This document shows positions 5,413 through 28,025 of a stretch of 30,436 nucleotides of DNA, one piece after another. The first letter of the stretch is position 1. The number at the start of each line of letters is the position of its first letter. Origin of the DNA: a virus (Duplodnaviria > Heunggongvirae > Uroviricota > Caudoviricetes); IMG/VR virus record IMGVR_UViG_2693429557_000019. One strand, given 5' to 3'. The notes under the pieces were generated by a model. That model was given only the letters and a program-made list of their open reading frames with translations, was not told the DNA's origin and made no database searches. Made by a program: the position numbers and the translations under genes.

Positions 5413-6603
5413 TTAATTGCTGTTAACCGAGGTGACCAGATTTGCCAGGTATTTATCGGTAATACGCTGGCGCAGGGTCAGGTTTTCAAGAGGAGGCACC
5501 GGGGTATAGTCGTAGTCGATATACAGTTTTCCGGCCTTGAGGGTTTCCGCATCGTTGGATTCTTCGCTGAACCAGCAGGTCGCATCCACGATATAGCCGT
5601 TTGTTTTCAGCTCACGGAATTTGGCATTGATGCCGTCAACGATGTCGCGAATCAGCGTTGCGGTGATGGGCTTGTCCACCGCCCACATGTGCGCCTCAGC
5701 CATCGTGTCGGCCAGCACCTGCGCGGTGCGGGTGTAGTTTTCAAAGAGGAACAGCGGGTCATCAGAGCAGGTACGGTTACCCCAGAAGCGGAAACCGTCA
5801 CGGCGAATCAGCGTTGTGACGCCTGACTCGTTAAGCAGGTCAGCATCGGTGCCGGACTCCTGCAAATCCCAGAATACGGACGCGCTGATGCCGGTAACAC
5901 CGTTCACCCCGACGTTGGACAGCGTTTTATGCCAGCCCTGCTCCTGGTCGATTTTAGCGCGCAGACCCAGCGCACGGGCGGTGGCATACGCGGTGGCGGT
6001 GGTACTGGCGACCGTATCCCATGCGAGGAAATCCGGCCAGATGACCATCAGCTCACGCTGGCTGAAATTCTGACGGTAGGCTTTCACCTCGGAAACGGTC
6101 TTACAGCCCCATGCGCTGATATACCCGAAAGCGCGCAGCTTCTGACAGACTGATGCCAGTGCAACAGCCACCTCTTTGGTGTCCAGTCCCGGCACGCCGA
6201 GAATACGCGGTTTAACACCGGTTACCGACTCCGCCGCCAGCAGGGCTTTCAGTCCGGTGTACTGACCGTTTTCGTCGGTGGTGCCGATGATATTGGAAAC
6301 GGTCTGCGCGAGTTTCGTTTCCTCGTCGTCGCCGGTGCCGTCTTCCACACGCACGACAACGGTGACCGGTTTTGACTGGTCGGCGATGGCCTGCAACGAT
6401 GCCGCCAGCGTGCCTTTTTTACCGGCCTTTGCAATTGCGCTCTGCACATTGGTAATCAGCACCGGTTTATTGAGGGGGAAGGTTTCCGCATCCGCATCGC
6501 TGGCCGTGCAGACCATGCCGACAATGGCAGTGGATACGGTGGAAATGACGCGGGTGCCGTCGTTAATCTCCAGCACCTGCACGCCGTGATGATAGTCACT
6601 CAT
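5413..6603 (-). CDS. FI: Contractile tail sheath protein FI, 396 aa
   Basis: 396-aa ORF at the head of the FI-FII-E-T-U-D operon; size matches P2 gpFI. Confidence 0.9.
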   Translation of the reverse strand: MSDYHHGVQVLEINDGTRVISTVSTAIVGMVCTASDADAETFPLNKPVLITNVQSAIAKAGKKGTLAASLQAIADQSKPVTVVVRVEDGTGDDEETKLAQTVSNIIGTTDENGQYTGLKALLAAESVTGVKPRILGVPGLDTKEVAVALASVCQKLRAFGYISAWGCKTVSEVKAYRQNFSQRELMVIWPDFLAWDTVASTTATAYATARALGLRAKIDQEQGWHKTLSNVGVNGVTGISASVFWDLQESGTDADLLNESGVTTLIRRDGFRFWGNRTCSDDPLFLFENYTRTAQVLADTMAEAHMWAVDKPITATLIRDIVDGINAKFRELKTNGYIVDATCWFSEESNDAETLKAGKLYIDYDYTPVPPLENLTLRQRITDKYLANLVTSVNSN

Positions 6604-6726
6604 CCGTTTAACTCCGTGGTTAATGGGTGCAACTATTTTCTGTTGGGCAGTGCATGAGACGCTATTTGACCTGGCTGGTCAGTGGATGAAACAACAGATA
6701 AAGAAAATGCGGGCAATTCGCCCGCA

Positions 6727-6744
6727 TGTCCTGATTTGTACACA
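6727..6744. promoter_or_regulatory. Candidate Ogr-binding dyad TGT-N12-ACA of the late promoter for the FI operon
   Basis: Sequence tgtcctgatttgtacaca has TGT and ACA separated by 12 nt. It lies about 125-140 bp upstream of the FI start on the minus strand, the arrangement described for P2 late promoters. Only the dyad was seen; -10/-35 elements were not mapped. Confidence 0.4.
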
Positions 6745-6942
6745 CTCATTTTCCGACTGACAGTTTACATAGCCCAAACGCTATCAAATCTGACAGCCTG
6801 CTATGAGCGAAAAGCGTTAAATCTCACGATATCTGCTACCGGGAAAAATTTCGATTATCTTCGATGGGAACTTTGATAATGTAGTAAATGCCATTTTCAG
6901 CGATCACTTTTCAAGCGTGTGTAAATGATTAATGTTAAAAAA

Positions 6943-6972
6943 TTGACTTCACTGAAATAAGGTTGCTAGTAT
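6943..6972 (+). promoter_or_regulatory. Candidate sigma70 promoter for the cargo gene (TTGACT-N18-TAGTAT)
   Basis: TTGACT at 6943..6948 and TAGTAT at 6967..6972 in an AT-rich stretch about 40 bp upstream of the cargo ATG. A Shine-Dalgarno-like taaggaa lies about 8 nt before the ATG at 7014. Confidence 0.45.
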
Positions 6973-7013
6973 TTTTGGAGCAACCATTAATGTTTTTTAT
7001 TTAAGGAATGTAA

Positions 7014-8432
7014 ATGACATACGCACTGATTGATAATTCAACTCTAACTGCAGTCCAAAGAATCGAGGGGAAAGTAAAAACAAGATCGAAGGACTCAGTA
7101 GATACAGACATAATAGCATTTGAGAACTATATACAGTCTATTTTGTTCTATGATCACGTTATCGCGGTTGATGATTATATTCCAGAGTACCGTGGGAGTA
7201 GGATTTCAAGTTTCAGAGAGATATTATTTCTTGATAAAGCACAATATGGGTTGGATGAAATTGAAAGTGAAGCAAAAAAAATATCTGATGCATTGAAACC
7301 TAAAATTCGTGGTGGAACATTTGTTAATGACGATTTTAAAAAACTAATTGAACTTCTTCAGACACATATCATATGTACATGGGACATTAGTTCAAGTGTT
7401 TATCATCTAACACTGAAGAACTTATCTGATGGAGGTAAGGAGTTTGAAAAATATGGTAACATTGCTGCTGCCATTTTTTCAGAACTGCGTGATGCTGCTG
7501 AGTCTGGTAATAGAACAAATGGCGATGTTGAACTTCTCGATCGATTTGGCAACCCTATTCGCAAGGGGTACAAAGTTCCCGGAGCAAAATGGGGGGATGG
7601 CACATCTGCTGGTGAAGCATCAGATGCAATCAAAGCATTCGTGGCTTCGCTTGTATGGCTGGCTAATCGGGCAGTATTTTATTCTCTCACAGCTAAGTAC
7701 CTTCAAGCAGATACTTTTTTATATCCATTACGTCAGGCGTATCAACAGACATATTTAAGCCAAAACTGTCAGTATGGTTTTGACTATGCTAAACATATTG
7801 TAGAAAACTTTTCCACTTCGTTAAGTCATGATCTCATTGATATTCATTCTGGTGGTAAAGCTGTAGCAACAGCAACTTCGCTTCCTTTATTTTCGGCATG
7901 GCTCGCAAAAGAAACTGGTGATCCAAGTTGTATTGTTGAAGCTGCTTATAACATAAGGGACAACAACGAATTTGTAAGGGCCCGTGAGAAAATGCGAGAA
8001 ATAAAGCGCTTGTTTGATGAAAATGAATTGCCTCAAGCTAATAAGTCAGTAAGAGCATTGCTTACTGAAGTATCGAAAGAATCAGATTATATTCGAACTA
8101 AGTATGGGCTCAAGACTAGACAAGGTGTACCTGTAACTAAGCTTGTACATGTATACAATACTGTTGCGGCTATTAATTCCCTTCCGAAACTACCGACCTT
8201 TAATTTTAAAGTTAAAGTTCCTGATTTCTTATATGATCTTAAAAAACCCAAGGGGTTTCGTGCTCTCTATCGAAATTTGACTAATGATCTTTCTACTGTG
8301 TGGTCGTTAGGAGAAGCTCGAGATATTCTTGGAAGTAAAGTTGTGATAGATAATCATGCAAGAATTTACAGTCCGAAGCATGAAGAACCGCGTTTCAAAA
8401 ACTCTCATTCCCCATATAAGAGCCCGATGTAG
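7014..8432 (+). CDS. Hypothetical 472-aa protein, AT-rich cargo gene at the FI/G (Z/fun) variable locus
   Basis: Long uninterrupted ORF on the strand opposite both flanking phage operons. Visibly lower GC than flanking phage DNA. Own promoter-like elements and RBS. I recognise no catalytic motif and no resemblance to a P2 protein. Confidence 0.8.
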   Translation: MTYALIDNSTLTAVQRIEGKVKTRSKDSVDTDIIAFENYIQSILFYDHVIAVDDYIPEYRGSRISSFREILFLDKAQYGLDEIESEAKKISDALKPKIRGGTFVNDDFKKLIELLQTHIICTWDISSSVYHLTLKNLSDGGKEFEKYGNIAAAIFSELRDAAESGNRTNGDVELLDRFGNPIRKGYKVPGAKWGDGTSAGEASDAIKAFVASLVWLANRAVFYSLTAKYLQADTFLYPLRQAYQQTYLSQNCQYGFDYAKHIVENFSTSLSHDLIDIHSGGKAVATATSLPLFSAWLAKETGDPSCIVEAAYNIRDNNEFVRAREKMREIKRLFDENELPQANKSVRALLTEVSKESDYIRTKYGLKTRQGVPVTKLVHVYNTVAAINSLPKLPTFNFKVKVPDFLYDLKKPKGFRALYRNLTNDLSTVWSLGEARDILGSKVVIDNHARIYSPKHEEPRFKNSHSPYKSPM

Positions 8433-8546
8433 CTTAAGAAAAAGACACGCCCACCTTGTGCGTCTACTTCTGGCACAGAGCGGACTCTCAGATTAGGCTT
8501 TACTCTGTGCCATAGATATGTAAGCTCACACCAGAGCTCATACAAC

Positions 8547-9074
8547 TTATTGCGGCATTTCCGGCCATTCAGGATTTGCAGGATCCACACGACTGACCAG
8601 AACACTGTAGCGTTCCCATGCCTCCAGTCGACTGCGCTCCTCATCTGTTGCCATATTCAGCCTGACAGCGCGCTCCAGCGGCAAAATCACGGATTCAGCA
8701 TCTGCAAGAAGTCTGGCTTTCCGATTTTCTGCCTGCTGCTGCAATTCCTCTGCCGTATAAATTCGTTTAATCACTGTACAGTCCTTAAACATCCAGTTCC
8801 CTGAAATGTCCGCCCGTCGGTTAGCAGTAATATCCGGCACTTCAACAACACTTAATCCATCCGGTCTGATAGCTGTCACATCCTTTTCCACATAGCGGAT
8901 AATATTATCTTTGTCGTACGCTATTTTTATCGTGTCATCAGCAAAATACTTTTGTTCTTCGTACCAGTTCTTACCATCTTCTGAAAAAAACCAGACAACA
9001 TCAAAGTCCTTTGTCAATTGATATTGTTCAACCGTTTTTGGATTACCTGCCGTTATATTTATCAAATGCTGCAT
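8547..9074 (-). CDS. G: Tail fiber assembly protein G, 175 aa
   Basis: 175-aa ORF immediately downstream of tail fiber gene H; size and position match P2 gpG. Confidence 0.85.
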
Positions 9075-20088: not shown

Positions 20089-20261
20089 TGTCAGGAGTCC
20101 TGAATAGTGATTAGAGGAGTCACATGTCGGCATCAGTTTCCCGACGATGCGCATCCTCCGCCATCAGTCCCGGATGGTTTATCACTGACACAACAGCACA
20201 TTAGCGAATCGCGGGGCGCGACTCAGTAGCCTTGCCGTGTATTCATCACGGCGAGGTATTC

Positions 20262-22034
20262 ATGACCATCACCACAGACACCACTCTTTTACACGACCCG
20301 CGTCGTCAGGCGGCGCTGCTGTACTGGCAGGGGTTTTCCGTGCCGCAGATTGCCGCCATGTTGCAGATGAAACGCCCGACGGTGCAGAGCTGGAAACAGC
20401 GCGACGGCTGGGACAGTGTTGCCCCCATCAGCCGTGTCGAAATGAGTCTGGAAGCGCGGCTGACCCAGCTCATCATCAAACCGCAGAAAACCGGCGGTGA
20501 CTTCAAGGAAATTGACCTGCTCGGACGCCAGATTGAACGACTGGCACGGGTAAACCGCTACAGCCAGACCGGCAACGAGGCAGACCTTAATCCGAACATC
20601 GCTAACCGCAACAAAGGCGGGCGTCGCAAACCGAAAAAGAATTTTTTCAGTGACGAGGCCATCGAAAAGCTGGAGCAGATTTTCTTTGAGCAGTCTTTCG
20701 ACTATCAGTTGCACTGGTATCGTGCCGGGCTTGAGCACCGCATCCGCGATATCCTGAAATCCCGCCAGATTGGCGCGACGTTTTATTTTTCCCGCGAGGC
20801 GCTGCTGCGCGCCCTGAAAACCGGCCATAACCAGATTTTTCTGTCGGCCAGTAAAACGCAGGCGTATGTGTTCCGTGAATACATCATCGCCTTTGCTCGT
20901 CTGGTTGACGTTGACCTGACCGGTGACCCGATTGTCCTGGGCAATAACGGCGCAAAACTGATTTTTCTCGGCACCAACTCCAACACCGCACAGAGCCATA
21001 ACGGCGACCTGTACGTCGACGAGATTTTCTGGATCCCGAATTTTCAGGTACTGCGTAAGGTGGCATCAGGTATGGCCTCACAGAGTCACCTGCGCTCGAC
21101 CTATTTCTCCACCCCGTCCACGCTGGCGCACGACGCCTACCCGTTCTGGTCGGGTGAACTGTTCAACCGGGGACGCGCCAGCGCCGCCGAACGTGTGGAA
21201 ATCGACGTCAGTCATAACGCCCTTGCCGGTGGTCTTCTCTGTGCGGACGGCCAGTGGCGGCAGATTGTCACCATTGAGGACGCCCTGAAAGGCGGCTGCA
21301 CATTGTTCGACATTGAGCAGCTCAAACGCGAAAACAGCGCCGACGATTTTAAAAACCTGTTCATGTGTGAATTTGTTGACGACAAGGTATCGGTGTTCCC
21401 GTTCGAGGAGCTGCAACGCTGCATGGTCGACACGCTGGAAGAATGGGAAGACTACGCGCCGTTTGCCGCAAATCCGTTCGGCTCCCGCCCGGTATGGATT
21501 GGTTACGACCCGTCACACCGTGGCGACAGCGCCGGATGCGTGGTGCTGGCACCGCCGGTGGTGGCCGGTGGCAAATTCAGAATACTTGAGCGTCACCAGT
21601 GGAAAGGCATGGACTTTGCCACCCAGGCGGAGTCCATCCGCAAACTCACCGAAAAATACAACGTCGAATACATCGGTATTGATGCCACCGGCCTCGGTGT
21701 CGGCGTGTTCCAGCTCGTGCGCTCGTTCTATCCCGCCGCGCGCGATATCCGCTACACGCCGGAAATGAAAACCGCAATGGTGCTCAAGGCCAAAGACGTC
21801 ATCCGCCGTGGCTGTCTGGAATATGACGTCAGCGCCACCGACATCACCAGCTCGTTCATGGCTATCCGCAAGACCATGACCAGCAGCGGACGCAGTGCCA
21901 CCTATGAGGCCAGCCGCAGCGAGGAAGCCAGCCACGCCGACCTCGCCTGGGCAACCATGCACGCCCTGTTAAATGAGCCACTCACCGCCGGTATCAGCAC
22001 TCCGCTGACATCCACCATTCTGGAGTTTTACTGA
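20262..22034 (+). CDS. P: Terminase ATPase (large) subunit P, 590 aa
   Basis: ORF trimmed to the Met at MTITTDTTLL, giving 590 aa as I recall for P2 gpP. Divergent from O and followed by Q, as in P2. Confidence 0.9.
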   Translation: MTITTDTTLLHDPRRQAALLYWQGFSVPQIAAMLQMKRPTVQSWKQRDGWDSVAPISRVEMSLEARLTQLIIKPQKTGGDFKEIDLLGRQIERLARVNRYSQTGNEADLNPNIANRNKGGRRKPKKNFFSDEAIEKLEQIFFEQSFDYQLHWYRAGLEHRIRDILKSRQIGATFYFSREALLRALKTGHNQIFLSASKTQAYVFREYIIAFARLVDVDLTGDPIVLGNNGAKLIFLGTNSNTAQSHNGDLYVDEIFWIPNFQVLRKVASGMASQSHLRSTYFSTPSTLAHDAYPFWSGELFNRGRASAAERVEIDVSHNALAGGLLCADGQWRQIVTIEDALKGGCTLFDIEQLKRENSADDFKNLFMCEFVDDKVSVFPFEELQRCMVDTLEEWEDYAPFAANPFGSRPVWIGYDPSHRGDSAGCVVLAPPVVAGGKFRILERHQWKGMDFATQAESIRKLTEKYNVEYIGIDATGLGVGVFQLVRSFYPAARDIRYTPEMKTAMVLKAKDVIRRGCLEYDVSATDITSSFMAIRKTMTSSGRSATYEASRSEEASHADLAWATMHALLNEPLTAGISTPLTSTILEFY

Positions 22035-23068
22035 TGAGCAAGAAAAAAGGGAAAACACCGCGACCTGCGGCAAAAACAATCACCGCCAGCGCCCCGAAAA
22101 TGGAAGCATTCACCTTTGGTGAGCCGGTGCCGGTACTCGACCGCCGTGACATTCTGGATTACGTCGAGTGCATCAGTAACGGCAGATGGTATGAGCCGCC
22201 GGTCAGCTTTACCGGTCTGGCAAAAAGCCTGCGTGCTGCCGTGCATCACAGCTCACCGATTTACGTCAAACGTAATATTCTGGCTTCAACGTTTATCCCG
22301 CACCCGTGGCTTTCCCAGCAGGATTTCAGCCGTTTTGTGCTGGATTTTCTGGTGTTCGGTAATGCGTTTCTGGAAAAGCGTTACAGCACCACCGGTAAGG
22401 TCATCAGACTGGAAACCTCACCGGCCAAATATACCCGTCGTGGCGTGGAGGAGGATGTTTACTGGTGGGTGCCGTCCTTCAACGAGCCGACAGCCTTCGC
22501 GCCCGGCTCCGTGTTTCACCTGCTGGAGCCTGATATTAATCAGGAGCTGTACGGCCTGCCGGAATATCTCAGCGCCCTTAACTCTGCATGGCTGAATGAG
22601 TCGGCCACGCTGTTCCGCCGCAAGTATTACGAAAACGGCGCACATGCCGGATACATCATGTACGTCACCGATGCCGTGCAGGATCGCAACGATATCGAAA
22701 TGCTTCGCGAAAACATGGTTAAGTCGAAAGGCCGCAATAACTTTAAAAATCTGTTTCTCTATGCCCCACAGGGGAAAGCCGACGGCATTAAAATTATCCC
22801 GCTCAGTGAAGTGGCAACGAAGGACGATTTTTTTAATATCAAAAAAGCCAGCGCCGCTGACCTGCTGGACGCGCACCGCATCCCCTTTCAGTTGATGGGG
22901 GGCAAGCCGGAGAACGTCGGGTCGCTGGGTGATATTGAGAAAGTGGCAAAGGTCTTTGTCCGCAATGAGCTTATCCCGTTACAGGACAGGATCCGCGAGA
23001 TAAACGGCTGGCTCGGTCAGGAGGTCATCCGCTTTAAAAACTACTCACTGGACACTGACAACGGCTGA
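22034..23068 (+). CDS. Q: Portal (capsid vertex) protein Q, 344 aa
   Basis: 344-aa ORF; start overlaps the P stop (ATGA). Followed by a terminator and the cos site, as at the P2 left end. Confidence 0.9.
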   Translation: MSKKKGKTPRPAAKTITASAPKMEAFTFGEPVPVLDRRDILDYVECISNGRWYEPPVSFTGLAKSLRAAVHHSSPIYVKRNILASTFIPHPWLSQQDFSRFVLDFLVFGNAFLEKRYSTTGKVIRLETSPAKYTRRGVEEDVYWWVPSFNEPTAFAPGSVFHLLEPDINQELYGLPEYLSALNSAWLNESATLFRRKYYENGAHAGYIMYVTDAVQDRNDIEMLRENMVKSKGRNNFKNLFLYAPQGKADGIKIIPLSEVATKDDFFNIKKASAADLLDAHRIPFQLMGGKPENVGSLGDIEKVAKVFVRNELIPLQDRIREINGWLGQEVIRFKNYSLDTDNG

Positions 23069-23073
23069 ACATC

Positions 23074-23095
23074 GCCGCCTGCGGGCGGCTTTTTT
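23074..23095 (+). terminator. Rho-independent terminator after Q
   Basis: Perfect 6-bp GC stem gccgcc / ggcggc with a 4-nt loop (tgcg), followed by a run of six T. Confidence 0.6.
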
Positions 23096-23235
23096 ACACC
23101 CCGCCATCACGCCCTCACACGCTCATCACCGCACAAAAAATCCCGCAGACACACCAACGCCCAACGGGCAGACTAAGCGCCGTCACGACGCGCTGAGACG
23201 CTGGAAAATAAAATCAGCACCACCGCCAGCGCGCA

Positions 23236-23254
23236 GTGCTTTCCCCGCCTCGCC
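23236..23254. other. cos: cos site: 19-nt cohesive-end sequence (reverse complement of GGCGAGGCGGGGAAAGCAC)
   Basis: Plus strand reads gtgctttccccgcctcgcc, the reverse complement of the P2 left cohesive end as I recall it. Adjacent sequence toward Q also resembles the P2 left-end sequence from memory. Confidence 0.8.
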
Positions 23255-23439
23255 CGCCCGCTTCATGGGGCGGTTTTAATGCAGTTGCATGAACACTCCA
23301 AGAGCACGCCAGCGCTAGTGATAACTAACAATAAAAGCGACTTCTGACGCATGCAAATCCATGCACATGATGGCATTTTTCATGATCTATGCGGTATGCT
23401 ATCCGCTTCAATTTTTAACACTTGTTAAGGGAACTAGAC

Positions 23440-24582
23440 ATGGACATTATTGATTTAAAATCTCAACTAGAAAATGAAGATAATGCCAAGAAAAGAGCAG
23501 AGTTGCTTGCTCAGCTAGAGGTGATAAAGCAAAACGCTGAAGAGCAAATTCGTGCTGAGCAAAAGGATGTGGATTTTGAGACCAAAGAATTTACCGTTGA
23601 GTTATTAGTTAATAAGTATCATAACGGATTAGAGGATGATACTAACGAACTCTTTGTTCCTGATTATCAAAGGGATTTTGTTTGGAGTGAAAAAAGACAA
23701 TCAAAATTGATAGAGTCTTTGATTTTGGGTTTTCCTATACCATATATATTTATAGCAGATGTTCTCTCCGAAGATCCCGATTTAGATGGGCGAATTGAGA
23801 TTGTTGATGGCTCACAACGAGTTAGGACTATACACGCTTTTATCCAAAATGAATTAGTTTTACAAGACCTGAAATCTTTAGACGTCCTTAATGGTTTCAA
23901 ATTCCAAGATTTACCATTATCACGTCAACGTCGTTTCATGAGAATTCCTGTCCGCGTTATAGAATTGAGTTCTAAATGCAATGAAGAAACCCGTAGAGAT
24001 CTTTTTGAGCGTATTAACTCTGGCAGCGATATATTGAAAGATATGGAAGTCCGTAAAGGATCAGAACTTGGTTCAACAAATTTATATACACAGGTTATTA
24101 AGCCATGCTCAACAATACCTAAATTTAAAGAATTAGCACCTTTATCTCAGACTAAAGAAAAACGAGATGAACGGTTAGAATTTACATTAAGATTCTTTGC
24201 CTACGTAGATAAGTACAAGAACTTTGATCATTCCGTACGGGATTTTCTAAATGACTATATGTCAGAAAATCGAGATATAGACGAAACTAAACAAAACTCA
24301 ATGAAACAAGAGTTTGCTAATGTTCTATCTTTTGTTGAAAACTATTTCCCAGCAGGATTCAAGAAAACTATTACTGCAAAATCTACACCTCGAGTTAGAT
24401 TCGAATCTCTCGCTGTTGGCGCAGCACTTGCATTACGTGAAGTCCCTGACCTTGTTCCCAAGAACTTAGATTGGCTAAGCTCAGAAGAATTCAAACGATT
24501 GACCACTTCCGACGGAGCTAATAGTCGCGTGAAGGTAATTGAACGAATTGAATATGTTCGGGATAAATTATTAGAGGATTAA
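23440..24582 (+). CDS. DUF262 / ParB-like domain protein (GmrS-like N-terminal domain, no recognisable HNH/DUF1524 nuclease), 380 aa
   Basis: Contains VPDYQRDFVWS and IVDGSQRVRTI, which fit the (I/V)PxYQRxxxW and DGQQR signatures of the DUF262 ParB/Srx-fold domain. N-terminal coiled-coil. AT-rich. Start taken at the ATG at 23440, 8 nt after an aaggga Shine-Dalgarno (the ORF track begins at a TTG at 23422). Confidence 0.85.
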   Translation: MDIIDLKSQLENEDNAKKRAELLAQLEVIKQNAEEQIRAEQKDVDFETKEFTVELLVNKYHNGLEDDTNELFVPDYQRDFVWSEKRQSKLIESLILGFPIPYIFIADVLSEDPDLDGRIEIVDGSQRVRTIHAFIQNELVLQDLKSLDVLNGFKFQDLPLSRQRRFMRIPVRVIELSSKCNEETRRDLFERINSGSDILKDMEVRKGSELGSTNLYTQVIKPCSTIPKFKELAPLSQTKEKRDERLEFTLRFFAYVDKYKNFDHSVRDFLNDYMSENRDIDETKQNSMKQEFANVLSFVENYFPAGFKKTITAKSTPRVRFESLAVGAALALREVPDLVPKNLDWLSSEEFKRLTTSDGANSRVKVIERIEYVRDKLLED

Positions 24583-24583
24583 C

Positions 24584-25264
24584 ATGGATCGTTTTCGTGA
24601 GGATTTTGACGAAAGGTCAGGAGAGATCTTGGCCTATTTGGATCTTTTGAAATTTATTGAGTATGCCGGTGCAGAACTGATATCAGCTGATGATAAAGAA
24701 CATAAGTTCTCCATTACTGCTCAATCACGAAAAACTCTAAAGGGAGCAGTATATATACTGTTATATAACCTCATTGAATCAACAATGAGAGAAGCTATCT
24801 GCCTTATTCATGAGACTATTTATGATAGAAACGTAGAATTTGACAAACTCAGGAAAAATCTCAGGTCAGAAATATTAAAAAGATTAAAAAATGAATCTGT
24901 AAATGTTGAAAGTTTAGTTAATCACCTTACCAAAGGTATATCTTGCGGTATATCTTATGGCACGTTCAACAAAAAGAAAATATTCTCAGGAAATATTGAT
25001 AGAGAGGAAATCAAAGAAAAATCGAAAATATATGGTTTTTCTACACATTCCGATTACACTCACACTAAACATGGTGAAAAATTAGCCACTGTTAAACAAC
25101 ATCGTAATGATTTATCTCATGGCAATGTATCATTTGCTGAGATTGGAAAAAATGTTTCATATCAGGACTTAGAGAATATTTCATTAGAAGTAATCGCCTA
25201 TCTTGATGCTATCGTGAATAATATAGAGCACTATATAAATAATAATGAATATTTAGAACAATAG
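24584..25264 (+). CDS. Putative HEPN-domain protein (Rx4H motif), 226 aa
   Basis: Translationally coupled to the upstream gene: TAA at 24580..24582 and ATG at 24584, with agagga 6-11 nt upstream. C-terminal region carries HRNDLSHG, fitting the HEPN R-x4-6-H motif. AT-rich. The HEPN call is motif-based inference only. Confidence 0.7.
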   Translation: MDRFREDFDERSGEILAYLDLLKFIEYAGAELISADDKEHKFSITAQSRKTLKGAVYILLYNLIESTMREAICLIHETIYDRNVEFDKLRKNLRSEILKRLKNESVNVESLVNHLTKGISCGISYGTFNKKKIFSGNIDREEIKEKSKIYGFSTHSDYTHTKHGEKLATVKQHRNDLSHGNVSFAEIGKNVSYQDLENISLEVIAYLDAIVNNIEHYINNNEYLEQ

Positions 25265-25270
25265 TTATAA

Positions 25271-25294
25271 GGCCTGTAAAGCAGGCCATTTTAT
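25271..25294. terminator. Candidate bidirectional terminator between the convergent HEPN gene and the methyltransferase gene
   Basis: Stem ggcctg / caggcc with a 5-nt loop, followed by attttat on the plus strand and an A/T-rich stretch on the other side. Sits exactly between the two convergent stop codons. Confidence 0.5.
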
Positions 25295-26319
25295 CATTCT
25301 AAATGGTTCTTGATTGATTGCCCAATTGCTTTTCCTAGTTCCACAGGAACAGCATTACCTATCATTTTCCCAATACTTCTTATAACAAACTTGTTTTTGT
25401 CTTCTACAAAAATATAATCCATCGGGAAAGTTTGCAATAAAGCAGCCTCTCTAAGAGAAATCGCTCTATGCTGTTCTGGATGTCCAAAACGCCCATTCCC
25501 GAAACCATAACAAAGAGTTGTAATTGTTGGACTTGGCTTATCCCAAGACATGCGCCCATATACACTAGCATACCCTTTACCGCTGGATTTCATATGACAA
25601 GCGGCAACCAACTCTTTCGGCCAGTCCTTCCATGTACCACCAGGAACAGAGTGTATAATTCTTTTTTTATTAATCGGATTTAATTTACTGGCTCTATGTA
25701 ATATATCATTTGGATCTGTTTGGCCATCTTCTAATGGAGGAAGATTTCCTATTGCATCTCTAACTGTTTTCAAAATAACATCGTCACGTTTTACTAACTC
25801 AATCGCCCCCAATTTTGAGGCCAACAATACATGACGGGAACGGTTTTGTGGGATTCCATATTCGACACAATCAATCTTAGACGCCCAAACATAATAGCCC
25901 AACTTTAACAATGAATTATAAAAATCATTATAAACTTTATGTTTAGTTACATCAGGAACGTTCTCCATTGTTACGATTTCTGGAGATACTTCGCGAATTA
26001 AACGTTCGAACTCATAAAGAAGAGGCCATTTTTTATCATCAGCCTTATCTTTTCCTTGAGTATATTTTGAAAAAGGTTGGCAAGGTGCGCATCCTGCCAA
26101 TACTTTTACAGACGCATCACCATAAAGCCTCAGCAGTTCCTCTTTTGTTACTTTAGCGATATCTTGCTCAATAAACTTAGATTTATTGTTTCTTTCATAG
26201 GGAAACCTACATTCCCCCTCAAGGTCAATGCCTGCAACGACATCAAGCCCCGCAAGCTGCAAACCATGAGTTAATCCGCCAGCACCACAAAAAAGGTCTA
26301 TCACCTTTACAGTCATCAC
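25294..26319 (-). CDS. DNA (cytosine-5)-methyltransferase, 341 aa
   Basis: Conserved C5-MTase motifs seen in the translation: FCGAGG (motif I, AdoMet binding), GCAPCQPFS (motif IV with catalytic Pro-Cys), ENVPDV (motif VI) and QNRSR (motif VIII). AT-rich. Confidence 0.9.
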   Translation of the reverse strand: MMTVKVIDLFCGAGGLTHGLQLAGLDVVAGIDLEGECRFPYERNNKSKFIEQDIAKVTKEELLRLYGDASVKVLAGCAPCQPFSKYTQGKDKADDKKWPLLYEFERLIREVSPEIVTMENVPDVTKHKVYNDFYNSLLKLGYYVWASKIDCVEYGIPQNRSRHVLLASKLGAIELVKRDDVILKTVRDAIGNLPPLEDGQTDPNDILHRASKLNPINKKRIIHSVPGGTWKDWPKELVAACHMKSSGKGYASVYGRMSWDKPSPTITTLCYGFGNGRFGHPEQHRAISLREAALLQTFPMDYIFVEDKNKFVIRSIGKMIGNAVPVELGKAIGQSIKNHLE

Positions 26320-26402
26320 TCACTCCAAATCTATACGATACTCAGTATACATCCCTTTCTACAAAATCTCGAGGCCTAACTTATAAACTCATATTTATTG
26401 AG

Positions 26403-27896
26403 TTAACGCTTCACTGAGTTTGACTCTAATACTGTTGAGAATCCCGACCACTCATCAGCGAGCGGGTAAGTGAATTTTTTCCCGTCATAATTTACGGTTG
26501 CCCCACGCGCCAGCACCTCAAGCTCCCATCGCTGCGGCCTGATACCGTTCTGAGCAAGGTCAACGCGGATACGGGTAATTTGCATTCGTTCCGACCGGGT
26601 CAGTCTGGCCGATGGCGCTATTTCATGCGGTTTTAACGGGCTTCCGTTTCTTTGCTGACGGTTTGGTCTTCTCAGTCCGTGTTTTAATGCACCTCTGAGC
26701 GCCCTCACAACCTCCGGGTCATTCCATTCGATAACACCGTCATCTACCAGATTAAGCACTGCTGCGGCGTGCTCAGAAGGTGTGGGAGCCGGTAACGAAG
26801 TATCACCACCAGTGAGCTTTCCACAGTTATTGACAGGACTCCGAGGCGCGGCGATGCCGCTTTTTAAAGTCAAAGGCTCAACGACCGGCACTTTCGGAAC
26901 AATGCGCCAGTCCGTCGTTCTGGTGATATGAATATGACGCGCGCCGAGATGCGGCGCGTAAATGCCGACCACTCTCTCGACTTCTTCCTCGTACTCGTTA
27001 ACTTCATCCGACGGACTACGGGCGACCCTGACAGTCTGACAATCGCGCGGGACATTTGCCCCACCCTGCGCGCTGATATACAGCGCAAAATCACCACTGT
27101 CTGCGGCGGCGCGTGCAGCCTCGACGCGCTCGTCAAACTCATCAGCAATGCTGACGCCGCGAGGCAATTTGCGTAGTTCACGGTAAGCCCCCATTGTCGG
27201 CAGGCCAACCGTTTTAAATTGCGGAATGCGCCACGTTGACGCCCATGCGGTAACAGCCGCGGCAGTATCTTTCAGCGGTCTGCCGCTATCGTTATCGAGC
27301 TGCCCATCCAGTGCATAGCCGTCGATATTTTTTGAGATGTATTTCGCGATATACCCCGCAGCACCGCCCCGATTAAGATGTTTTGCCTGAAAACGGTTTC
27401 GCGCAGCTCCTCTTTCGTCGCCATCCTCTTTGAGCGCGTAGCGACGCATGATTTCGATAATCTGGTTACGCTGGCGTGGATTACAAAAAAGCATCATATG
27501 CCAGTGCGGCGTTCCGTCGTGGTGTGGCTCGACGACTCGCAAACCGTAGACCTGTAAATCATTATCCTTGAATGCCGTGCGCATCAGGCTCCAGATACGG
27601 CAGAGATAACGCTGCGCATCCTTTGGATTAAATGCCTCATCGTTCCAGCCGTGATTTAGCTGGACGGTTTTACTTTCGCCTTTTCCAACCTGACGTGTCG
27701 GGTGATACTTTGACGGCGCGGTCAGCGTGATAAACATCCCCACATCACCTTCTGCGGCGGCGTAACGCTCAATACCGGCAATGGTGTTCATCAGCTCCAT
27801 CCGGCGAATTTCAGGATTAGAAATACTGCCCATCACCTTACTGATAAGGTCGATGCGCTCGCCTGTTTCCCTGTTTTCGAGATCACACGATTTAAG
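26403..27896 (-). pseudogene. A: Replication initiation protein A (rolling-circle HUH endonuclease), 5'-truncated at the IS21-family junction
   Basis: ORF carries the HUH motif (TPHWHMMLF) and a Tyr/Lys motif (YIAKYISKN) of Rep-type nickases. It is 526 aa against about 761 aa that I recall for P2 gpA. The first roughly 28 codons of the ORF-track ORF (to 27983) are read through IS-end tandem repeats and are not genuine gene A sequence. Junction placed near 27897 from memory of the P2 gpA sequence. Confidence 0.7.
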
Positions 27897-27910
27897 ATGC
27901 AAAATGGCAT

Positions 27911-28025
27911 CTGAATCGATCGCAGTTTGGCATTCGAATCGATCATGATTTGGCATCCATCTCCGATCACAGTTTGGCATCACAATCGATCACGATTTGG
28001 CATACTTCCGATCATTGATTGGAAT
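27911..28025. repeat. Five tandem 22-24 bp direct repeats (consensus about cgatcaNNRtttggcat), probable multiple terminal repeats of the IS21-family left end
   Basis: Units end in ttggcat at 27933, 27956, 27980 and 28003, and in ttggaat at 28025. A diverged sixth copy (aaaatggcat) ends at 27910. The array lies immediately upstream of istA. Confidence 0.6.

Follow-up and report, generated by a model that had tools for sequence, protein, structure and literature searches.

A mobile DUF262–HEPN–methyltransferase cassette of temperate phages resembles a restriction-modification system

The locus

The window, the whole 30,436-nucleotide stretch of DNA that was analysed, belongs to a P2-like prophage in which Phage_GPA and portal genes flank an AT-rich island between portal gene Q and replication gene A. 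GC content is 0.34-0.39 over 23.5-26.5 kb versus about 0.55 in the flanks, and annotated E. coli prophages have the same island layout. The island is cargo of P2 defence hotspot 1, between gpA and gpQ/cos; a defence hotspot between P2 genes A and Q has been described (PMC9519451, PMC9122126). Its features are as follows.

23353-26379, no strand assigned: mobile three-gene cassette (DUF262, HEPN and C5-methyltransferase genes with their upstream regions), about 3.0 kb, delimited by blastn homology and the GC trough
23440-24582, plus strand: DUF262 (ParB-like NTPase) protein, 380 aa; the longest ORF, from TTG 23422, is 386 aa
24584-25264, plus strand: MAE_28990-family HEPN protein (226 aa; PF18737, 5.8e-29), the predicted nuclease effector
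25271-25287, no strand assigned: hairpin GGCCTGTAAAGCAGGCC between the convergent stops, with a terminator-like site on the plus strand
25294-26319, minus strand: C5-cytosine DNA methyltransferase, 341 aa from GTG, 340 aa from ATG 26316
26344-26372, minus strand: promoter-like element TCGAGA-17-TATACT, 5' of the methyltransferase and within the cassette, from a consensus scan

The HEPN and methyltransferase stops converge with 29 nt between them, and the hairpin in this gap, with folding energies of -13 and -15 kcal/mol and z values of -3.3 and -4.0 for the two strands, is likely a bidirectional terminator. The hairpin is not universal: in a second allele from E. coli, the HEPN and methyltransferase genes overlap by 32 nt at their 3' ends. 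As for the promoter-like element, the scan returned 8 sites versus 10.7 expected and the site upstream of the methyltransferase is not significant alone; its weight derives from conservation across cassettes, the block CTCGAGATTTT..AAAGG..TATAC being unchanged in six cassettes with about 72-76% overall nucleotide identity. This block contains an invariant CTCGAG, a candidate methylase target that occurs 3 times in the window versus 5.5 expected, an uninformative count. Phage-borne copies of the cassette have the methylase reading in the direction of the phage early or late genes, with the DUF262-HEPN pair reading against it.

The methyltransferase

The minus-strand gene encodes a C5-cytosine methyltransferase of the PF00145/dcm superfamily with the ten-motif catalytic core. 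The protein matches PF00145 in Pfam (E=3.4e-58, residues 5-337) and TIGR00675 (dcm) in NCBIfam, the latter at 130 bits versus a cut-off of 100.65; NCBIfam has no equivalog for it. Motifs I (DLFCGAGG, 8-15), IV (APCQPFS, 78-84, with the catalytic Cys in PCQ), VI (ENV, 119-121), VIII (QNRSR, 158-162), IX (RAISLREAALLQTFP, 285-299) and X (GNAVP, 321-325) are present, and the core motifs are unchanged in 25 homologues and seen also in the alignment to M.HaeIII. The sequence-only reading, which had described a compact 341-aa methyltransferase with all core motifs, lying tail to tail with the DUF262-HEPN operon across a hairpin and sharing its AT-richness, is borne out in each of these particulars. 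RefSeq-style annotation of near-identical copies places the start at the ATG one codon after the GTG, giving 340 aa. Identical copies of the protein are recorded on 754 contigs, and a literature search on its RefSeq accessions found no mention of them.

The closest PDB match is M.HaeIII (7.9e-22), confined to the core motifs; there is no close characterised relative from which a target sequence could be read. Conservation across the family is strong in the target-recognition region (about residues 165-284), which suggests that family members may share one specificity.

The DUF262 and HEPN genes

The two plus-strand genes are coupled, with one base between the DUF262 stop and the HEPN ATG. The DUF262 protein has the N-terminal DUF262 domain with its NTPase motif (PF03235, 8e-26), and its model finds its best structural matches in BrxU, a DndI-type DUF262 protein and SspE. 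In GmrSD, BrxU and SspE, DUF262 domains are NTPase sensors that govern a linked nuclease. When profiles were searched against the PDB, DUF262 matched BrxU and SspE marginally and HEPN matched nothing meaningful. The DUF1524 nuclease domain is absent, PF07510 matching no cassette protein in Pfam, although at one other locus (L111) a neighbouring true GmrSD-like gene does match it. Neither Pfam nor structural matches revealed a separate nuclease fold in the DUF262 protein, and no recognised endonuclease fold (PD-(D/E)XK, HNH, GIY-YIG or PLD) was found in the restriction partner.

The HEPN protein exceeds the PF18737 gathering score of 26.8. Its Rx4H motif (R174-N-D-L-S-H179), together with Y61-N62..E65, does not vary among 16 homologues, whose identity is 20-93%. 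Most HEPN domains are RNases, so the "restriction" of unmethylated DNA may be something other than DNA cleavage.

Linkage of the three genes

Scans centred on DUF262, run over metagenomes and IMG/VR, yielded 160 loci; these fall into 98 clusters at 90% identity, and HEPN lies directly downstream of DUF262 in essentially all of them. Methylases scoring over 400 bits to the family profile were called same-family. Among the 60 full-flank clusters, 51 adjoin a same-family methylase, five a C5-methylase of another family and four none that is recognisable; a C5-methylase is present in 78 of the 82 clusters that could be judged. The stable linkage of a methylase to its restriction partner, one feature of classical Type II restriction-modification systems, is found at these loci. 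The cassette is carried by 116 of 5,426 complete E. coli genomes (9 with allele 1, 107 with allele 2), where every match spans all three genes and no methylase-only partial match rises above cos matches of 9% coverage. GenBank phages agree, DUF262 adjoining a methylase homologue in 11 of 12 records. Approached from the methylase, at least 20 homologues (67-88% identity) have longest carrying contigs that match those of the DUF262 homologues in size.

An intact methylase accompanies a frameshifted HEPN gene at one locus (L007) and a split DUF262 gene at another (L017). In Peduovirus P24B2 the methylase is frameshifted and DUF262 and HEPN are apparently intact; this frameshift may be a sequencing error. 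Divergence of DUF262 correlates with that of HEPN (Spearman 0.66) and weakly with that of the methylase (0.29).

Gene order and mobility

The triad occurs in at least four gene orders, among them a co-directional methylase-DUF262-HEPN operon. The arrangement seen in the window, DUF262>HEPN><M, accounts for 41 clusters, and M>DUF262>HEPN>, whose genes lie about 10 nt apart, for 29; DUF262>HEPN>M> was found in one cluster, and <M DUF262> in one cluster plus one further locus (L009). Triads are found in gamma- and betaproteobacteria (Tatumella, Kluyvera, Halomonas, Acinetobacter, Marinobacter, Pelistega and a betaproteobacterial MAG), in the cyanobacterium Caldora, and also in gut metagenomes; in the distant set, from Tatumella to Caldora, identity is 35-53% for DUF262 and 24-41% for HEPN.

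The three genes move as a block. By blastn the cassette starts at 23353/23440 and ends at 26373/26379, with unrelated flanks, and copies with 72-77% nucleotide identity occur in Klebsiella lambdoid prophages (L244, L246), Tatumella (L003) and IMG/VR records (L168, L178). Both P2-like and lambdoid prophages carry it, the second E. coli allele lying downstream of Q in the latter, and it is also present in Salmonella and in Moraxella prophages. One Klebsiella pneumoniae DUF262 variant, 85% identical, is recorded on 252 contigs.

Relationship to described systems

The closest precedent is a line in Table 1 of Anantharaman et al. 2013 (PMC3710099), which lists MAE_28990 HEPN in a neighbourhood with a ParB nuclease and a DNA methylase. 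These are the same three components (PF18737 HEPN, ParB-like DUF262 and DNA methylase), and the window holds a member of this grouping. That entry comes without a census, gene orders, mobility, phage context or experiment; what is added here is that the methylase almost always belongs to one C5 family, that the genes form a cassette of about 3 kb in temperate-phage hotspots, and how frequent it is in E. coli. No experimental study of the triad was found in the literature.

Two catalogued defence systems share the DUF262 component. The top PADLOC match of the DUF262 protein, nearly full length, is NsnA of Menshen (NsnABC; 1.7e-54), implying a common architecture of DUF262 plus helical C-terminal part, but the NsnB ATPase and NsnC effector are absent from the island, which holds DUF262, HEPN and methylase only, and identity with Menshen was rejected. 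The second match (2.5e-35) is the A model of PD-T4-2, a two-gene DUF262 plus HEPN anti-phage system from E. coli ECOR65 (Vassallo et al. 2022, PMC9519451). PD-T4-2 was cloned and is active without a methylase, whereas the cassette has a linked one; its two ORFs span about 1.54 kb versus 1.84 kb in the cassette, and its HEPN protein is filed under PF18735. With the A model ranking second to NsnA, no PADLOC match for HEPN and a methylase linked, the cassette was not assigned to PD-T4-2. No PADLOC-DB v2 model, PD-T4-2_B included, matches the HEPN partner at E below 0.01; scans with this library would therefore flag, at most, the methylase together with a partial "NsnA/PD-T4-2_A" match.

SspABCD-SspE and Dnd also combine a self-applied DNA modification with a DUF262 NTPase that controls a nuclease, and SspE and the DndI-type protein show weak sequence and fold similarity to the cassette DUF262; however, they rely on backbone phosphorothioation and a fused DUF1524 HNH domain, whereas the cassette has predicted base methylation (5mC) by a single enzyme and a separate HEPN effector. 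GmrSD and BrxU differ in that the cassette lacks DUF1524 and is linked to a methylase that a purely modification-dependent enzyme would not need; classification of the DUF262 protein as GmrSD was rejected on the absence of DUF1524. For the same reason the targeting of modified DNA, which the sequence-only reading had drawn from GmrSD, is not simply transferable. In PrrC-EcoprrI an RNase is held in check by a linked restriction-modification system, an analogy that has been drawn for HEPN genes linked to such systems; PrrC itself is an ABC ATPase plus HEPN with a Type I partner, and the cassette has no such components.

A probable restriction-modification-like cassette

From these sequence comparisons, the DUF262, HEPN and methylase genes very probably form one functional restriction-modification-like defence cassette, carried as temperate-phage cargo (a "moron"), a reading that we put at about 0.9. 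The cassette resembles a restriction-modification system in which the putative restriction half is unusual. This agrees with one of two options offered by the sequence-only reading, a three-gene unit acquired together, which the near-obligate co-occurrence in both search directions, the several gene orders, the mobility of the cassette between unrelated phage backbones and the precedent in PMC3710099 strongly favour.

The other option was an independent anti-restriction or orphan methylase beside a Type IV-like DUF262-HEPN pair in a crowded hotspot. The P2 A-Q hotspot does often carry several unrelated cargo genes, the methylase runs in the direction of the phage early operon behind a promoter-like site of its own, and distant members of its family occur without DUF262-HEPN. 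Against this, a C5-methylase adjoins DUF262 at 56 of 60 full-flank loci, the linkage persists through four gene orders, non-phage contexts and distant phyla, and the three genes have moved together between P2-like and lambdoid phages. Chance juxtaposition was rejected on the co-occurrence data and is now very improbable. The anticipated counter-evidence, a methylase widespread in P2-like phages without the neighbouring operon, did not appear for close relatives; more distant members of the methylase family (55-62% identity) do occur without the operon, one of them in the same P2 hotspot.

In the mechanism that we infer, which extends to the activity and target of the methylase, sensing by DUF262 and the substrate of HEPN, a conserved promoter of its own would drive expression of the methyltransferase in the lysogen, and the enzyme would mark self by methylating one set motif in the DNA of host and prophage. 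DUF262, a ParB-like NTPase that lacks a nuclease domain and whose C-terminal half is helical and DNA-binding, would sense the methylation state of DNA and, on meeting unmarked incoming DNA, activate its translationally coupled HEPN partner through the conserved Rx4H nuclease site. Activated HEPN would degrade nucleic acid, most probably RNA, and lead to restriction or abortive infection. The gene orientation in phage-borne copies would favour methylation of replicating phage DNA upon induction, with the by-product that virions would be protected against the same system in new hosts.

That the methylase marks self and DUF262 reads methylation to gate the HEPN nuclease is somewhat better than an even proposition. 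Co-occurrence, the four arrangements, phylogenetic depth, cassette mobility, the decay pattern, and the alternative partners and Vsr genes considered below speak for it, as does the literature. Several observations speak against it: HEPN domains are mostly RNases; known DUF262 sensors (GmrSD, BrxU, SspE) recognise modified and not unmodified DNA; four of the 60 full-flank loci have no recognisable methylase; PD-T4-2, a distant relative, works in E. coli K-12 without one; and the P24B2 frameshift, the weak tracking of methylase and DUF262 divergence, and the conservation of the target-recognition region among methylases whose partners differ in fold point the same way.

Two other arrangements of the same parts can be weighed against self-marking read by DUF262. 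As in Ssp and Dnd, DUF262 could bind self 5mC, with the NTPase thereby stimulated or positioned, and license HEPN against unmarked nucleic acid, so that methylation would be needed for defence. The DUF262 domain of SspE senses the host's phosphorothioate marks, with stimulation of NTPase and nicking, and SspE is among the structures that the DUF262 model matches best; moreover, the partners are exclusively C5-cytosine methylases, drawn from three or more families, a pattern suggesting that what is read is the mark and not a sequence. Such licensing is nevertheless unlikely, given that the PD-T4-2 pair defends without a methylase and that an intact methylase beside decayed DUF262 or HEPN, seen at two loci, better fits a toxic restriction module that needs its methylase. 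Still less probable is a PrrC-like guard, wherein DUF262 and methylase would together be a conventional restriction-modification core directed at DNA, the ParB-like domain supplying the DNase, and a latent HEPN RNase would be freed when a phage blocks restriction or methylation. Anantharaman et al. (PMC3710099) proposed such logic, by analogy with PrrC-EcoprrI, for HEPN genes embedded in restriction-modification loci and name the DUF262 partner a "ParB nuclease", and the tight co-evolution of DUF262 with HEPN would suit it; but the DUF262 domains characterised so far are NTPase sensors and not cutting domains, and the DUF262 protein has no detectable separate nuclease fold.

If the cassette works as proposed, restriction-modification logic would extend to a ParB-like NTPase and HEPN pair unrelated to classical restriction endonucleases, and DNA methylation state may be tied to RNA cleavage. 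Because it sits in the cargo hotspots of temperate phages, it may influence the host range of phages, the immunity of lysogens and the epigenetic marks that prophages bring to clinically important Enterobacteriaceae. It also offers a clean genetic handle on DUF262 sensing without an attached DUF1524 nuclease.

Other partners of the methylase family

The distant family members that lack the DUF262-HEPN operon are paired with other restriction-type modules: Vsr with a SNF2 helicase and an Eco57I/MmeI-like enzyme, or paraMORC3 (GHKL-type) proteins, the family adjoining GHKL-type proteins in 13 genomes. Such exchange of partners is typical modular behaviour for a restriction-modification methylase. 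Vsr genes adjoin, or are fused to, partner methylases, which implies real genomic 5mC. In a neighbour-joining tree the methylases from DUF262-HEPN contexts are not monophyletic and interleave with those from paraMORC contexts, and for this reason no strict co-speciation of methylase and DUF262-HEPN is claimed. The conserved target-recognition region, in a family whose partners are of unrelated fold, sits awkwardly with each partner having evolved the same specificity.

A broader proposal is possible, if tentative: that the cassette exemplifies an unnamed, widespread immune class in which 5mC status, set by a dedicated methylase, is read by a DUF262 NTPase gating a separate HEPN RNase. The self/non-self discrimination of restriction-modification, made on DNA, would then be joined to an RNA-directed output, abortive or by translational shut-off, and not to DNA cleavage, and the methylase family might supply a self-marking component that can be swapped among three or more unrelated effector modules (DUF262-HEPN, paraMORC3-type, and SNF2 plus Eco57I-like).

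A parallel outside the triad is the Dcm-paraMORC3 pair of the P2-like phage PhiR44_1, where a homologous methylase (54.7% identity) occupies the same P2 A-Q hotspot, also in convergent orientation, but the partner is a GHKL ATPase annotated paraMORC3 and not DUF262-HEPN. The associations of paraMORC with restriction-modification genes reported by Iyer et al. 2008 stand beside this pair as a close known system. Proteins that resemble the PhiR44_1 GHKL partner in domain organisation are classed with the Shedu nucleases.

Organization of the island

By ORF and Pfam search the window is a P2-like prophage, and its AT-rich island lies between the cos-proximal region and replication gene A.

Features in and around the island
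20232-22034: terminase
22034-23068: portal gene Q
23069-23370: cos-proximal stretch of ~300 nt, common to P2-like phages
~23.5-26.5 kb: AT-rich island
23440-24582, plus strand: DUF262 gene (Pfam GmrSD_N, 8e-26; longest ORF from TTG 23422)
24584-25264, plus strand: HEPN gene (Pfam HEPN_MAE_28990, 6e-29)
25294-26319, minus strand: C5-methyltransferase (PF00145, 3e-58; NCBIfam dcm, above cut-off)
26403-27983, minus strand: replication gene A, C-terminal 526 codons
27997-30436: IS21-family element, istA (rve and Mu-transposase C domains), then istB

The island (GC 0.34-0.39 versus ~0.55 on each side) contains exactly three genes. The DUF262 protein carries ParB-like NTPase motifs, DYQR and DGSQR, that are invariant among distant homologues; its PADLOC matches are Menshen NsnA first (1.7e-54) and PD-T4-2_A second (2.5e-35). 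A Pfam search found no DUF1524 His-Me nuclease domain in the DUF262 protein. HEPN begins one base past the DUF262 stop codon, and its Rx4H motif, R174-NDLS-H179, does not vary among 16 homologues, which makes it the only evident nuclease of the cassette. The sequence-only reading had described a complete C5-methyltransferase, tail-to-tail with DUF262-HEPN across a hairpin and equally AT-rich, and the description holds: all core motifs are present and invariant in 25 homologues, the methylase and HEPN stop codons are separated by a 29-nt gap containing the hairpin GGCCTGTAAAGCAGGCC, and the GC trough spans all three genes. An identical methylase occurs on 754 contigs, and the copy of the cassette seen here is intact and ordinary.

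The cos-proximal stretch, which presumably bounds the hotspot, recurs at ~88-95% conservation: 2,175 of 5,426 complete E. coli genomes have it, as do P2-like phage records. Two terminator-like hairpins lie in it (23074-23089 and 23254-23273). On the other flank, the gene A remnant (526 aa) matches the Phage_GPA profile from positions 133-321 onwards. Its truncation is due to the IS21-family element, which extends past the window end, and the prophage is probably replication-defective.

A block 5' of the methylase, CTCGAGATTTT..AAAGG..TATAC, shows no variation among six cassettes (window 26344-26379, L001, L003, L168, L178 and L244) that are otherwise ~72-76% identical; its conservation exceeds that of the coding sequence. 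It coincides with a promoter-like site, TCGAGA-17-TATACT (26372-26344), and contains one palindrome, CTCGAG, to which three of the six copies add a second, GTATAC. A conserved promoter of its own, possibly a regulated one, is therefore probable for the methylase, and the block could serve as an operator or as a methylation site for autoregulation. A separate promoter matters here because the IS21 insertion stands between the methylase and the phage early promoter.

Linkage of the three genes

DUF262-profile scans of metagenome and IMG/VR contigs gave 160 loci, which were searched in six frames with three protein profiles and formed 98 clusters at 90% identity. In virtually every cluster HEPN is the gene directly after DUF262. 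Where both flanks are complete (60 clusters), a methylase of the same family adjoins the pair in 51, a different C5-methylase in five and no recognisable methylase in four; two of the different methylases, upstream of DUF262-HEPN, are fused to Vsr by Pfam (L127:25-1227 and L130:2879-4444). When clusters cut by a contig end that still show a methylase are counted, the figure is 78 of 82. Several gene orders occur.

Gene orders around the methylase (M)
DUF262>HEPN><M: 41 clusters
M>DUF262>HEPN>, a tight co-directional operon: 29 clusters
DUF262>HEPN>M>: 1 cluster
<M DUF262>: 1 cluster

Across triads, methylases share 57% identity on average in pairwise comparison, DUF262 proteins 48% and HEPN proteins 30%. 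DUF262 and HEPN diverge in close step (Spearman 0.66); the correlation of the methylase with them is weak yet significant (0.29, a value reached in none of 500 Mantel permutations), as would be expected were the methylase a more exchangeable module. At one of the four methylase-free loci (L111:6080-7309) HEPN is shortened to 172 aa and the next protein has a GmrSD_C (DUF1524) domain with a weak partial DUF262 match, which places this locus in a defence-island context.

The converse scan, from the methylase with one genome per species, yielded 80 loci with methylases 55-86% identical to that of the window. HEPN and DUF262 adjoin the methylase in 17, convergent with it in all but L009, where the pair is divergent. 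Identity to the window proteins in these triads is only 35-53% for DUF262 and 24-41% for HEPN; the triads come from Tatumella, Kluyvera, Halomonas, Vreelandella, Halovibrio, Neptuniibacter, Marinobacter, Acinetobacter, Pelistega, a betaproteobacterial MAG and the cyanobacterium Caldora. A linkage that outlasts rearrangement, with sequences down to 24-50% identity, classically marks a functional unit.

At the remaining loci the methylase family adjoins other restriction-type modules. In ~41 (among L019-L082) the methylase is 55-60% identical to that of the window, and the next genes encode Vsr, a SNF2 helicase of 1,044 aa and an Eco57I/MmeI-like methylase-endonuclease of 1,373 aa (for example L030:2772-5906 and L067:12608-16729); with the methylase they make a conserved four-gene block that spans alpha-, beta- and gammaproteobacteria and two Verrucomicrobia-affiliated MAGs. 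At 13 loci its neighbour is a 650-aa GHKL (HATPase_c_3) protein; this GHKL/paraMORC3-type pairing is seen at L248, L011, L013, L020, L021, L037, L039, L060, L063, L072 and L073. A neighbour-joining tree places the methylases of DUF262-HEPN context in one half, interleaved with those of GHKL context.

Distribution and mobility

Nucleotide homology to copies elsewhere runs from 23353/23440 to 26373/26379, taking in the three genes with their upstream regions and nothing further. In Klebsiella pneumoniae the cassette occupies the nin region of lambdoid prophages (DUF262 85% identical in protein), and a second E. coli allele, with DUF262 47% identical, lies just 3' of the Q antiterminator in lambdoid prophages. 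Among the 5,426 complete E. coli genomes the window allele is present in nine, in the P2 hotspot in every copy checked, and the second allele in 107; all matches cover all three genes, and no methylase-only match was found. For more than 20 methylase homologues of 67-88% identity, the longest contig has the same length as that of a DUF262 homologue, implying that the two lie on the same contigs.

In GenBank phages DUF262 stands beside the methylase homologue in 11 of 12 records, which include nine prophages of Moraxella catarrhalis as well as Peduovirus P24B2. The one exception, P2-like Escherichia phage PhiR44_1 (L248, 4007-7055), carries in the P2 A-Q hotspot a 'Dcm' 54.7% identical to the window methylase and convergent with a gene annotated paraMORC3 in place of DUF262-HEPN. 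This arrangement, with the GHKL pairing in 13 genomes, suggests that the methylase is an interchangeable partner of several effector modules.

Near-obligate linkage, varied gene order and movement as one cassette support the proposal that the three genes were acquired as a unit. The opposing proposal, of an unrelated methylase beside the operon by chance, is rejected on co-occurrence, since linkage persists from both search directions and across gene orders and divergence; nor are close relatives of the methylase common in P2-like phages that lack the operon, the distribution that the sequence-only reading had tied to chance.

In P24B2 (L249, 4001-5021) a +1 frameshift interrupts the methylase just past the conserved PGG, at about codon 228; the neighbouring DUF262 and HEPN genes appear intact. 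Either this is a sequencing error, or DUF262-HEPN is naturally tolerated there without its methylase.

Relation to known systems

The cassette is related to GmrSD, Menshen, PD-T4-2 and classical Type II restriction-modification (R-M), and differs from each. GmrSD, like BrxU and SspE, is defined by the DUF1524 domain that this DUF262 protein lacks; the island has no NsnB or NsnC, which rules out Menshen; PD-T4-2 is excluded by the missing PD-T4-2_B match and by the methylase; and no recognised REase fold is present, as a classical Type II system would have. On these grounds the cassette is computationally predicted to be R-M-like and distinct. A single table line in Anantharaman et al. (PMC3710099) lists the triad neighbourhood; no other paper in the literature searched mentions the family, and a search by protein accession retrieved no citing paper.

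A model for cassette function

Three intact genes with conserved motifs, near-obligately linked, move as one cassette. The methylase would mark host and prophage DNA, and DUF262, by analogy with characterised relatives, would be an NTPase sensor of methylation state that controls the HEPN nuclease. We favor ordinary R-M polarity, in which the mark would protect and unmarked invader DNA would set off the response. Several observations point this way: restriction-type modules of other kinds have methylases of this family as partners; Vsr genes lie beside partner methylases or are fused to them, implying real genomic 5mC; and the methylase is kept intact at two loci where the presumed restriction half has decayed, with HEPN frameshifted in Halomonas llamarensis (L007:9042-9729) and DUF262 split in Marinobacter halodurans (L017:8969-10159). 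HEPN domains are usually RNases, so the response may end in RNA cleavage and abortive infection instead of DNA cutting. Anantharaman et al. (PMC3710099) took this view of R-M-linked HEPN genes.

Other evidence cuts against this polarity. It is modified DNA that known DUF262 sensors bind; four loci have no methylase, PD-T4-2 functions without one, and the P24B2 methylase is frameshifted; the target-recognition region of the methylase is conserved irrespective of partner module. Two less likely readings are an SspE-like licensing scheme, in which methylation would be needed for activity, and, with slightly lower probability, a PrrC-like guard.

In phage-borne copies the methylase runs in the direction of the early or late genes of the phage, with DUF262-HEPN opposed, an orientation that would favor methylation of replicating phage DNA upon induction. 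The anti-restriction role raised by the sequence-only reading may thus hold, as a by-product and not an alternative.

A second AT-rich island

Between the tail sheath and tail-fibre assembly genes is a second AT-rich island (6600-8550, GC 0.38-0.42). Its sole ORF (7014-8432, plus strand, 472 aa) has no match in Pfam or PADLOC and is a candidate uncharacterised defence gene. The island coincides with the presumed position of the second P2 defence hotspot (the Z/fun slot).
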